Source of the DNA: Candidatus Woesearchaeota archaeon
GTDB taxonomy: Archaea; Nanobdellota; Nanobdellia; SCGC-AAA011-G17; JACPIM01
Reading direction: 5' to 3'
Length of the DNA: 64,000 nt
Assembly (NCBI GenBank): GCA_964513145.1
Contig: CAZELK010000003.1
Span: 32,001 to 96,000, forward strand
The position numbers and the translations under genes are program-made. This document shows, piece by piece, positions 21,621-26,958 of this stretch. Under the pieces are notes generated by a model. It did no database searches. It was not told the origin of the DNA and was given only the letters and a program-made list of their open reading frames with translations. The stretch's first letter is position 1; every line of letters starts with the position of its first letter.

Positions 21621-21643
21621 CATAGGTAATTGGCTTGTATTTT
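21621..21643 (-). other. 3' arm of 23S flanking stem (pairs with 25047-25069)
   Basis: 23-nt inverted repeat with one mismatch. Confidence 0.85.
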
Positions 21644-21932
21644 ATTTTTGGGCTATTAGTAACTGCAAGCTGAATACGTCGCCGAAGCTTCGTACTTACA
21701 CTTCAGTCCTATCAAACTCATGTTCTTTGAGCGCCCTATATCTCTTTTCAAGTATAGCTTCCTCCTTAGATGCTTTCAGGAGTTATCTATTAGAGCGTAG
21801 CTGCTCGGCCTGCCTTGTCAGACAACCGATACACCAGAGGCTCCGAATCATTGTTCCTCTCGTACTAAATGATCCTTACCTTCAGATATTAAGCACTTCC
21901 AGTAGATATAATCCAAACTGTCTCACAACGTT

Positions 21933-22016
21933 ATGTTAAACGGGAGGAATTGAACCTCGCTTCGGCAAATACATAGAGATGTTTTAATTTGCTTATGTAT
22001 TTGCTTACAACCGTTG
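21933..22016 (-). other. 23S intron, 84 nt (about E. coli 2588/2589)
   Basis: Relaxed BHB: GUUA/UAAC central helix, bulges AG|C and AU|A, inner helix AACGG/CCGUU. Confidence 0.88.
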
Positions 22017-22070
22017 CTTAACCCAGCTCACGAACCATTTTAATGGGTGAACACCCCCACCCTTGGCTGC

Positions 22071-22256
22071 CTACAGTTCGAAGGACAATTCGTGAAAATA
22101 GTTTTCCTTAAAGTCAAAATATTAGTGATTAATTTAATATAGTTCTAAATAGTTCTCAAATTAACATACTAATTTTTAGACTTCTAAGTAATAGATATCG
22201 GAAATAAAAGACATTTTGACTTGAAAAACTATTGTTCGTATGATTGTCCTTCGACA
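22071..22256 (-). other. 23S intron, 186 nt (H91 loop, about 2534/2535)
   Basis: GCAG/CUGU helix, bulges AA|U and AG|G, long inner hairpin; splicing gives a GUGCAGAAGC loop. Confidence 0.85.
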
Positions 22257-22269
22257 TTCTGCACAGCCA

Positions 22270-22301
22270 CTATATTGATACAAGAATTAACTTTATATCA
22301 T
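22270..22301 (-). other. 23S intron, 32 nt (about 2521/2522)
   Basis: Strict BHB: AUAU/AUAU helix, bulges CC|A and AG|U, inner UGAUAUAA/UUGUAUCA. Confidence 0.9.
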
Positions 22302-22373
22302 GGATATGGTGAGCCGACGTCGAAGTAGCAAACAGCGCCATCGATATGAGCTCTTAGGCGCTACGACTCAGTT

Positions 22374-22410
22374 CTAGGGATCTAAGAGAAAATTTTTGAT
22401 CTCTAAGATT
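22374..22410 (-). other. 23S intron, 37 nt (about U2449/A2450)
   Basis: GGGG/CCCU helix, bulges AU|A and AG|A, 10-bp inner helix with one mismatch. Confidence 0.88.
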
Positions 22411-22914
22411 ATCCCCGAGATAGCTTTTCTGTCATACCTAGCCCCTATTAATAAGGACATAGGGGTTCGCTAGACCAGACTTTCGTCTCTGGATTTTTTA
22501 ATAGTCAAAATCCAGTCAGGCCAACTTTTGCTCTTGCACTCTTCAGAAGATTTCCAAACTTCTTGAGTTGACCTTAGGGCCCTGTTGATATCTTTTCAAC
22601 AGGGTGCCGCCCCAGCCAAACTGTCCAACTGCTGCTGTCCCAACTTTCGTTGGTAAGTAACATAAATTCTACAGAGTGGTATTTCAATTTTGTCTATCCT
22701 TAACCTAGCAGCTAAGGCATAGCGACTACCACCTATACTACACAGTAGAACATATATCACAACAACAGTCTACAGTAAAGTTCTACGGGGTCTTTTCTTC
22801 CCGCTGGAAGTCTCTGGCCTGCACACCAGAAGGGTATTTTCAGTGGATACTAACTAGGGACAGTGCGGATCTCGTTACGCCATTCATGCGCGTCGTCATT
22901 CAAACGACAAGGTA

Positions 22915-23053
22915 CAACGATATCATTAATCTCATTTCTCAGATTCAACTTTTCAGTTCAAAATGTGAAAGATATTTTTTGTTTAACAAACCCAAGGCAA
23001 TTCTCTTAGATGAATGGCTTTTTCATCAAAATCTATAGCGAGATTAATGATAA
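22915..23053 (-). other. 23S intron, 139 nt (about A1938/U1939)
   Basis: GCGA/UCGU helix, bulges AA|U and UG|U, 13-bp perfect inner helix. Confidence 0.9.
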
Positions 23054-23079
23054 TTTCGCTACCTTAAGAGAATTATAGT

Positions 23080-23111
23080 CTAGAATTGTTAAAGATTTTT
23101 CTTACAACAAA
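23080..23111 (-). other. 23S intron, 32 nt (H69 loop, about A1912/A1913)
   Basis: GGAA/UUCU helix, bulges UA|U and AG|A; splicing restores UAACUAUA. Confidence 0.9.
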
Positions 23112-23903
23112 TATTCCCGCCGTTTACAAGTCCTTAGCCTCCTTGAAAAGAGGTTTTAGATACTTGCACTGGGCAGACGTCACGTCTCATACACATCATT
23201 GCTGACTTGCGAGACGTTACGTTTTTGTTAAACAGTCGGACCCGCCTAGTCACTGCGCCCTGTAATTGCAGTTAGAAACTACAACCGCAGGGATTCCTTC
23301 TACCAAAGGTACGGAACTAAATTGCCGATTTCCCTTAGCTAGTTTACACCATCATACCTTAGGCTTCTCACCTAGAGTACCTGTGTTGGTTCTGGGTATA
23401 ATTATTCAAGATCCTTTTTAATTTCATTTTCACGGACTCCAGGCATCAACCAAATGGACCATAAGGTCCACTATTCTTAAAATTAATCAAGTTCTCACCA
23501 TTACGGTACTTCCTTGATTTGTTTTAATTAACATCCAAGACAATAGATGTTGGCTTAGCCCAAAATGTCTGAAACTAAACTTGTGTTACCACGCGTACTT
23601 GAATAGTAAAGGAATATTAACCTTTTTCCCATTCCCTAAGACCTATTAGGCCTTTGGTTAGGATTAACTTACTCTTAGCTGATTTGCATTGCTAAGAAAC
23701 CCTTACTCTTACGGTATCAGGGAGTCTTACCCTGTATTGCTCCTACTACTACCAGGATTCTCATTTTTATTAGGTCCACTATTTCTTTCGAAAAAGCTTC
23801 TACCCTAACAAAGCGCCTACCTACCACATAAGTTCTTTACTTAGTCTATAGTATCGGTAACTGATTTAGCCCCGTCCATCTTCAGGGCATATAACCTTGA
23901 CAG

Positions 23904-23946
<43 letters not shown>

Positions 23947-25046
23947 TACCTCCCTGCTGTCTCTGGTTATACACGCCTTTTACCCTTTAACACTTAATCA
24001 GTATTTAGGGACCTTAACTATAGTCTGGGTTGTTCCCCTCTCGCGATATAAGCTTAACCCACATCGCTTTTTCCTAAGGTCTCAGATGACAAAATATTCG
24101 GAGTTGGACGAAGAGGGGAGGAATTTCTTCCCCTTACCCCTAAATCCGTAGCTCTACAATTTTATCTATCTCACTTAAGACTAGACTGAGGCCTATTTCG
24201 GTAGGAACCAGCTATAACCAGTCTCGATTGGCTTTTCACCCCTAATCTAAGGTTATACAAACAGATTTACACTAGAACTGCTTCAGGCCTCCACAAGGTT
24301 TTACCCCTGCTTCACCTTACCCTAGAATAGATCGACTGGATTCGGGTAGCATCCAAGTGACTATAGGCACTTTCATACCTAACCCCTCCTTGAAAAGTGT
24401 GGGTTTTTGGTTTCCCTTCAAGTTCAAACTGAAAAGTTTTTACTTTCGCCACTTAAATGCACTCCCTGGCTCGTTATTCGAAACGCACGATACAACTCCG
24501 AAGAGCAGTATCATTCTGTATTCATTAGGTTTCAGGATCTTTTCACTCCATGTTAAAGGTTCTTTTCAACTTTCCTTCGCAGTACTCTTTGCTATCGGTC
24601 TCAAGTTATATTTAGAGTTGGAAGTTAATAGCTCCCACATTCACACCCCATATCCGAGGAGTGCTACTCTGGATACCTCGCAAGTCTATTAATCTGCTCT
24701 ACAGGACTATCACCTTCTATGATGTCTTTTTCCAAAGAACTTTGAGCAGAATTAATTAAGATCAAAAGCAAGGTCCAAACACTACATTTCTATTTTATTT
24801 CTAAAATAGATTCAGTTTGCTCTATGTCGTTTTTTCTCGCTGATACTCACGACATCTATTTGATTTCTTTTCCTCCAGGTACTAAGACGTTTCAATTCCC
24901 CAGGTTCCCAATCTTTTCAGATTTAATGAGAAGTCTCATTCAGAAATCTCCAGTTCACAAGTTGCATGCACTTCGCTGGAGCTTATCACAGCTTGCCATG
25001 TCCTTCTTCGGAACTTGAGCCAAGTCATCCACCTAATGAAGTAGGA

Positions 25047-25069
25047 AAAATACAGGCCAATTACCTATG
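25047..25069 (-). other. 5' arm of 23S flanking stem
   Basis: Inverted repeat of 21621-21643. Confidence 0.85.
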
Positions 25070-25132
25070 CACGGAACTATATAAAAATAATTCCCTTGAC
25101 CCAAAAAAATTTCTTTTTCTGAGCTGCATTTT

Positions 25133-25217: not shown

Positions 25218-25364
25218 TGGACCCGTCGGGATGTTCATTACTTTTAATTTCTCAAAAGTTTATTTTGAACCCGAGGCCCCTGCCTTGCAAGGGCAGTGCT
25301 CTATTGCCCCAAACTTTGTAAAAAGTTTTGATCAAATTATTTGACCAGACTGAGCTACGGGCCC
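25218..25364 (-). tRNA. tRNA-Ala(UGC) with two non-canonical introns (D-loop about 25303-25343, 41 nt; T-loop 59/60 at 25232-25263, 32 nt)
   Basis: GGGCCCG/CGGGUCC acceptor with G3-U70; UGC anticodon; T-loop intron forms a BHB (UUCA/UGAA helix, bulges AAA and CAU); CCA not encoded. Confidence 0.92.

Positions 25365-25414: not shown

Positions 25415-26958
<1,544 letters not shown>

Follow-up and report, generated by a model that had tools for sequence, protein, structure and literature searches.

Six short, probable bulge–helix–bulge introns in the functional core of a Woesearchaeota 23S ribosomal RNA gene

Archaeal introns of the bulge–helix–bulge (BHB) type are defined by a 4-bp central helix lying between two 3-nt bulges on opposite strands, with each bulge cleaved after its second base (PMC4090602). 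Such introns have long been known from the ribosomal RNA (rRNA) genes of Thermoproteales and Crenarchaeota (PMC4496867), and BHB introns are found together with group I introns in the large-subunit (LSU) genes of Woesearchaeota and Pacearchaeota (Nawrocki, Jones & Eddy 2018, PMC6125680). The present analysis concerns the 23S rRNA gene contained in a 64,000-nt window of a Candidatus Woesearchaeota genome (assembly GCA_964513145.1, contig CAZELK010000003.1, positions 32,001–96,000); positions given below are those of the window. Six insertions interrupt the catalytic core of this gene, and they are very probably archaeal BHB introns spliced by the endonuclease EndA and the ligase RtcB. Although the intron type and its mechanism are long known, this gene is an unusually dense and well-supported case.

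The BHB introns of crenarchaeal 23S rRNA genes share with the six insertions the splice motif, the inferred enzymes (EndA, then a ligase) and a clustering in domains IV–V at conserved, functionally central positions. Examples include the I-DmoI intron of Desulfurococcus mobilis, small introns of Staphylothermus that lack an open reading frame (ORF), and introns of Pyrobaculum and other Thermoproteales. Crenarchaeal 23S introns exist in ORF-bearing and ORF-less forms; here all six are ORF-less, and an ORF-bearing form is found in a genome of the same genus, G001. The present host differs from the Crenarchaeota in being a DPANN archaeon of mesophile type, rich in AT, whose only EndA is α4-like, whereas the crenarchaeal enzyme is heterotetrameric. 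Furthermore, six introns occupy one gene, and three of them are only 32–37 nt long.

Short hairpin or remnant ORF-less introns in the 16S rRNA genes of Thermoproteales (PMC4496867) likewise keep only the BHB core after loss of the endonuclease ORF and are patchily distributed. At the present locus, in contrast, steps of decay can be read between same-genus genomes (132 to 32 nt and 606 to 37 nt), and one mini-intron of 31–34 nt persists across several families. Multi-intron tRNA genes of Thermoproteales and DPANN archaea resemble this gene in combining several BHB introns with micro-exons and relaxed sites of the hBH or HBh′ type (PMC4090602), and two such non-canonical introns appear in the spacer tRNA-Ala of the same operon; in the 23S gene, however, the host RNA is rRNA and the introns fall within active-site elements of the ribosome. 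The earlier survey of the same lineage and host gene reported the same order-wide mixture, with group I introns at LSU/1931 and 2593 and BHB introns elsewhere (PMC6125680). The BHB introns are only outlined in that work, whose catalogue covers those of group I, whereas the gene described here has no group I intron and six of the BHB type. The site list, the covariation and the deletion series presented below were not found described in the literature searched.

The 23S rRNA gene lies on the minus strand in a 16S–23S operon (Rfam). It matches the archaeal LSU model RF02540 over its full length (2246.6 bits, model positions 1–2987), and its 3421 nt compare with the 2987 positions of the model. 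With a single match, it is the only 23S/LSU rRNA gene found in the genome, a metagenome-assembled draft of 0.98 Mb in 18 contigs that is 98.8% complete, in which the gene is embedded in a long contig. The closest relatives of the encoded EndA are nearly all labelled Candidatus Woesearchaeota or Nanoarchaeota, and these labels, together with the size of the genome, support its assignment to DPANN. Among relatives' genomes, a search recovered 23S genes of 2876–4031 nt; the three shortest (L001–L003, same order) are intron-free and were used for comparison.

Alignment to these three genes reveals six insertions of 32, 139, 37, 32, 186 and 84 nt in transcript order. An Infernal structural alignment of the stretch 21900–23150 agrees, placing 32 additional nucleotides in the loop of H69 and 139 just 3′ of it, 218 (32 + 186) in H91 and, at GGGGAUAA, a further 37; the stretch comprises 1251 nt over 740 model positions, an excess of 511. 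With ends refined by the BHB motif, the introns together span exactly 21933–23111, which confirms the number, lengths and extent of the introns proposed in an initial annotation based on sequence alone. That annotation had also assigned them to H69, the H70/71 region, the peptidyl-transferase centre and H91. Mapping of E. coli numbering (rrlH) onto the spliced gene bears this out, with insertions in the H69 loop, H70, the peptidyl-transferase ring (2449/50 and 2588/89) and H91, all within domains IV–V (Table 1). Domains I–III, which had been described as free of introns, contain no insertion of at least 12 nt relative to L001–L003 in the first 1945 nt of the gene.

Removal of the six introns yields a gene of 2911 nt, and the spliced junctions match the intron-free relatives base for base and without gaps at all six sites; the alignment to E. 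coli is gap-free as well. The junctions were scanned with an explicit geometric rule derived from PMC4090602, and folding energies were not relied on. Each of the six has a full 4/4-bp central helix and 3-nt bulges at exactly the observed intron length, and cutting after the second bulge base restores the sequence of the relatives exactly at every junction. The initial description of strict or relaxed BHB folds whose cleavage restores conserved sequence is thus upheld. By chance, a central helix (H) of 4 bp with an inner helix (h′) of at least 4 bp, allowing a slide of ±8 nt, is reached by 0.9% of random placements in the gene. Five of the six junctions attain this quality outright, and the sixth does so only past one G·A mismatch. 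The 5′ half of the motif, consisting of central helix, 3-nt bulge and h′, is canonical in all six introns, with an h′ of 4–12 bp (in intron 5, past the G·A mismatch).

Table 1. Coordinates and BHB elements of the introns and associated features (minus strand throughout; site numbering for 23S rRNA is that of E. coli; H, central helix; h′, inner helix; the outer helix closes the 3′ bulge; arrows mark predicted cleavage points)
Feature	Window position	Length (nt)	Site and region	H	Bulges	h′	Outer helix
23S rRNA gene	21636–25056	3421
Intron 1	23080–23111	32	A1912/A1913; H69 loop	GGAA/UUCU	UA↓U, AG↓A	6 bp	1 bp only
Exon between introns 1 and 2	23054–23079	26	3′ half of H69 to H70
Intron 2	22915–23053	139	1938/1939; H70	GCGA/UCGU	AA↓U, UG↓U	12 bp	5–6 bp, 1-nt offset
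Intron 3	22374–22410	37	U2449/A2450; peptidyl-transferase ring, adjoins A2451	GGGG/CCCU	AU↓A, AG↓A	4 bp, more past mismatch	0–1 bp; 3′ side relaxed
Intron 4	22270–22301	32	2521/2522; 5′ strand of H91	AUAU/AUAU	CC↓A, AG↓U	8 bp	2 bp; nearest of the six to strict hBHBh′
Micro-exon between introns 4 and 5	22257–22269	13	UGGCUGUGCAGAA
Intron 5	22071–22256	186	2534/2535; H91	GCAG/CUGU	AA↓U, AG↓G	at least 11 bp past G·A mismatch (12+ by geometric scan, 11 visible in fold)	6 bp, 1-nt offset
Intron 6	21933–22016	84	G2588/A2589; base of H93, 3 nt from U2585	GUUA/UAAC	AG↓C, AU↓A	5 bp	not found
16S intron, same operon	26156–26230	75	GGAUUAGAU↓ACCC	UUAG/CUAA	AU↓A, AU↓A	7 bp	2 bp
Spacer tRNA-Ala(UGC)	25218–25364		16S–23S spacer

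Further comparative evidence comes from 54 full-length 23S genes sampled from the order, in which insertions were mapped by pairwise alignment to the spliced gene. Pairwise mapping corrects a MAFFT alignment that splits the relatives' large insertions at LSU/1931 into two false sites ('ref1951' and 'ref1970'). Short insertions recur at core sites 1085, 1784, 1873, 1912, 1938, 2070, 2310, 2449, 2475, 2521, 2534 and 2588, nearly all with a perfect central helix at shift 0. At site 2521, an intron of 31–34 nt occurs in six genomes with six different exon/intron helix pairs, all of them complementary. In a referenced alignment, 36 of 36 pair cells are paired (100%), compared with 30–44% in controls with a slid partner. 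Compensatory changes on both sides are seen in three of the four central-helix pairs, and none of 500 shuffles reaches the covariation score. At the remaining sites the exon half is invariant, which makes covariation uninformative there.

Several of the other sites are also shared. Site 2534 is occupied in ten sampled genomes, including this one, by introns of 38–213 nt, nine of which have the full 4-bp central helix (three of four pairs in G012), and the combination of introns at 2521 and 2534 is present in five. A BHB at site 2588 is found in G009 and G069 as well, and site 1912, or a position one base off, is occupied in G009 and G037. Counting insertions of at least 24 nt at conserved core sites, 23 genes have none, and 16, 6, 4, 1, 1 and 3 genes have one, two, three, four, five and six, respectively; 31 of the 54 therefore have at least one. 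Carrying several introns in the 23S gene is characteristic of this order. Only three genes carry six (this gene, G009 and G099), and among these only the present one has core insertions that are all short and of BHB type: G009 also contains one group I intron, and G009 and G099 each have an insertion longer than 500 nt. As noted initially, and as read directly from the junction scan, four of the six introns end in UAG. Order-wide, the 3′ bulge reads A-G↓N in 17 and the intron ends in UAG in 10 of 29 BHB-positive 23S introns, counts that include homologues and are not independent. The UAG ends therefore reflect a lineage-wide bulge preference or shared ancestry and are not special to this gene.

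Comparison with G001 bears on the origin of the introns. At site 1912, G001 has an intron of 132 nt, of which the 32-nt intron 1 is the same sequence minus a clean internal deletion of 100 nt (31 of 32 positions identical). At site 2449, it has an intron of 606 nt with the same ends as the 37-nt intron 3, encoding a LAGLIDADG ORF of 181 aa (PF14528, E = 1.5e-9) that is, weakly, closest to I-DmoI among solved structures. Homologous introns also occupy site 1938 (120 nt; 99 of 116 positions identical to intron 2) and site 2588 (84 nt; 73 of 84 identical to intron 6, with a compensatory change in the long hairpin). In the present gene, no ORF longer than ~50 aa overlaps any intron, leaving no room for an intron-encoded LAGLIDADG homing endonuclease, in agreement with the initial description of the introns as ORF-less. 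From these alignments, at least two of the mini-introns, those at sites 1912 and 2449, are deletion derivatives of longer introns. The introns are very probably remnants of selfish elements that retain only the BHB-forming ends, which are all that EndA would need. This history is of the kind described by the Burt & Koufopanou model of homing-endonuclease gain, decay and loss (as cited in PMC11270868).

The genome encodes one EndA of 188 aa, with matches to PF01974 (107 bits) and PF02778. The protein is α4-like: the region of its Tyr/His/Lys triad aligns to M. jannaschii EndA, with no length difference or insertion between Tyr and Lys, and its His-to-Lys interval, compared in view of the 'L3' loop described for DPANN (PMC5829648), does not differ in length from that of M. 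jannaschii or N. equitans α. Its best relatives of solved structure are the M. jannaschii α4 enzyme and the N. equitans catalytic subunit (E ~1e-34). Searches of this genome with PF01974, PF02778 or the protein itself as query found no second (β) subunit or paralogue; a weak additional PF02778 match (E = 0.014) contains an internal stop and was discounted. α4 EndAs are regarded as strict in specificity, with exceptions in DPANN, where α4-type EndAs have been linked with disrupted tRNA genes (PMC5829648).

RtcB is also encoded (PF01139, 473 bits), on contig C6 of this genome at ~75368–78153, outside the window, by a gene that carries an intein and two apparent mini-introns. The rtcB reading frame is broken twice within the most conserved N-terminal motifs, and the intein follows after GFDIN-C. 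Compared with the intact protein of the same-genus genome G003, an insert of 33 nt containing an in-frame TAG makes the first break, exactly between HWG and YGFPIGG. The second break comes from 11 additional nucleotides between SPGG and IGFD, and these also explain a frame offset of +2. The 33-nt insert is BHB-shaped (GGGG/CCCU; bulges UU↓U and AU↓A), and the 11-nt insert is BHB-shaped or bulge–helix–loop-shaped (GAGG/CCUU; outer helix CCCG/CGGG), with its 5′ site in a loop. Removing both by the BHB rule restores the residues of the same-genus RtcB, including the Ile. An uninterrupted rtcB is present in 10 of 20 relatives, and in several of the others this region contains stops. For BHB introns in coding genes, cbf5 is the published precedent (PMC2738675). 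The ligase for the six 23S splices would probably need its own message to be spliced.

The insertion positions, the motif, its covariation, the restored exons and the presence of the enzyme genes are directly established; that the introns are cut out and the exons joined, in what sequence, and what becomes of the introns is inferred. In the primary transcript, the four exon bases just 5′ of each 5′ splice site would pair with the four intron bases just 5′ of the corresponding 3′ splice site, and the resulting pairing would leave four base pairs between two 3-nt bulges. The one α4-like EndA would cut after the second base of each bulge, and RtcB would join the exons and probably circularise the introns. 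The product would be a mature 23S rRNA with intact H69, H70, peptidyl-transferase ring and H91. As this is the sole 23S gene found in a nearly complete genome that encodes both EndA and RtcB, it may reasonably be inferred that assembly of the 50S subunit needs six cut-and-join events.

Several observations weigh against splicing of all six introns by EndA and RtcB. The strict hBHBh′ form is approached only by intron 4; the other five are relaxed (HBh′-like). In introns 2 and 5 the outer helix is displaced by a single unpaired base, and in introns 1, 3 and 6 it is reduced to 0–1 bp, or 0–2 bp in rigid register. These mostly relaxed sites would have to be cut by a sole EndA that consists of a single α4-like subunit, a type held to be strict (PMC5829648). 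In addition, unconstrained folding gives a minimum-energy structure other than the BHB for introns 4 and 6, and the interruption of rtcB itself means that the supply of ligase is not straightforward.

Introns 4 and 5 pose a further constraint. The GG of the 13-nt micro-exon between them serves the outer helices of both BHBs, and the two complete motifs therefore cannot coexist. Either the order of removal matters or the outer helices are dispensable. Because the 2521 and 2534 pair recurs in other sampled genomes, the arrangement with its micro-exon is evidently workable.

The alternative that stands closest to EndA/RtcB splicing is excision by EndA without re-joining. The mature 23S rRNA would then consist of as many as seven fragments held together non-covalently, comparable to some bacterial rRNAs from which intervening sequences are excised. 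DNA alone cannot distinguish ligation from its absence, and with two mini-introns and an intein in rtcB the supply of ligase could be limiting. However, pieces as small as 13 nt in H91 and 26 nt between H69 and H70 would be poorly held by base pairing alone, and RtcB is conserved, its interruptions being BHB-shaped and their removal restoring conserved motifs. BHB introns in rRNA are moreover ligated in characterised archaea, namely in Desulfurococcus and the Thermoproteales cases. Fragmentation is accordingly considered very unlikely. Still less probable is the reading of the inserts as lineage-specific expansion segments retained in the mature ribosome. Small length variation is indeed common in these genomes, in variable regions of domains I–III and VI, but the six sites include universally conserved positions such as the H69 loop, 2449/50 and 2588/89. 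The inserts are patchy in distribution and missing from close relatives whose exons are identical in sequence; one site ranges from 37 to 606 nt within a single genus, and what the covariation between exon and intron preserves is the motif for cleavage, not a helix of the rRNA.

That the inserts are group I or II introns capable of self-splicing, or degenerate relics still dependent on ribozyme chemistry, has next to no probability. Group I introns of organelles classically occupy site 2449, and the 23S genes of this order do contain group I introns, mostly at LSU/1931. That site is the commonest insertion site among the 54 genes, occupied in 27 of them by 266–757 nt without a consistent BHB, and is empty in the present gene. 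Group I introns in this order have been catalogued previously (PMC6125680); introns of this type have a conserved catalytic core to which the covariance model RF00028 responds, and are usually longer than ~200 nt. The model detects both of the LSU/1931 insertions that were scanned (relatives L006:2791–3079 and L010:2697–3019), whereas no group I or II model matches 21900–23150 even with permissive filters (E up to 1). The six introns measure 32–186 nt, four of them 32–84 nt, far below the size of a ribozyme core. All six have a BHB, which is absent from the true group I-sized insertions of relatives; lacking the motif, the LSU/1931 insertions thus provide a built-in negative control for the BHB scan. 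Among the sampled genes, no site is shared between BHB and group I introns. An assembly artefact, a chimera or a dead rRNA gene is equally hard to credit. The genome is a metagenome-assembled draft in multiple contigs, but homologous introns lie at the same sites in independently assembled genomes, and the exons of this gene, the only 23S gene found, are intact and conserved.

Two of the introns were examined for content of their own. A tRNA-like reading of the 84-nt intron 6 is unsupported: ARAGORN reports none, and a permissive Rfam search of 21900–23150 finds no tRNA or tmRNA. Its hairpins are conserved in G001. Intron 2 contains UGAUGA and two CUGA boxes and was compared with box C/D guide RNAs, in which a C box (RUGAUGA) and a D box (CUGA) form a k-turn and a guide of ~12 nt adjoins D or D′. 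Its match to Rfam snoR11 scores 25.2 bits (E = 0.11), below the threshold of 50. A 9-nt complement to the downstream exon (E. coli 1966–1974) is not significant, as at least 9 nt is found in 440 of 500 shuffles. The G001 homologue has lost the terminal CUGA and differs in C-to-D′ spacing. Intron 2 is probably not a box C/D guide RNA.

The exon immediately 3′ of intron 3 (window ~22368–22373) reads AACUGAG where E. coli has AACAGGC, with U at the equivalent of position 2453, next to A2451. U at this position is common to the intron-free relatives, one of which also has U at 2452, and it is therefore a lineage trait unlinked to intron 3.

Elsewhere in the operon, the 75-nt intron of the 16S rRNA gene has a homologue of 84 nt at the same site in G001. 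The tRNA-Ala(UGC) of the 16S–23S spacer is missed by ARAGORN and Rfam as it stands, and is recognised by ARAGORN only once two BHB-compatible inserts, one in the D-loop (~37–41 nt) and one in the T-loop, are removed. The T-loop insert measures 34 nt in the ARAGORN trial and 32 nt by reading of the T-loop. The initial annotation had counted three introns of exactly 32 nt in the window; two are confirmed in the 23S gene, and the third, in this T-loop, is consistent with that reading, although its ends are not rigorously fixed. The non-canonical positions of the tRNA-Ala introns imply that EndA must handle non-canonical sites and hence has a broad specificity. A perfect 14-bp processing stem flanks the Rfam-defined 23S gene in the minus-strand RNA (21622–21635 with 25057–25070; GCAUAGGUAAUUGG / CCAAUUACCUAUGU). 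A two-bulge BHB was sought in this stem and none was resolved.

A more far-reaching proposal holds that the introns act as ordered, built-in checkpoints of large-subunit assembly, with the mini-intron at 2521 and the 2521 and 2534 pair kept by selection, or else that the EndA of Woesearchaeota has broad specificity through an undescribed determinant. This is unlikely, if less so than any of the four alternatives weighed above. Were the checkpoint version true, H69, the peptidyl-transferase ring and H91 would form only after EndA and RtcB had acted, and, since rtcB itself would need BHB splicing, the making of ribosomes would rest on a ligase loop that depends on itself.

Introns of this kind defeat rRNA gene callers, primers and length filters, a practical concern when DPANN diversity is surveyed. 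The 54 genes yield an order-wide map that sets BHB sites beside group I sites in the 23S genes of Woesearchaeota, and the same-genus comparisons capture stages of intron decay that lead from elements with an endonuclease to minimal hairpins of ~32 nt. For an α4-type endonuclease, which is expected to be strict, the six junctions would also form a naturally occurring series of relaxed BHB substrates. So dense an intron load in the catalytic core of rRNA, in an archaeon with a reduced genome, indicates how far enzyme-spliced introns may colonise such a gene. If all six splicing events are required, the tRNA-splicing machinery of this archaeon would be essential for ribosome biogenesis in addition to tRNA maturation.

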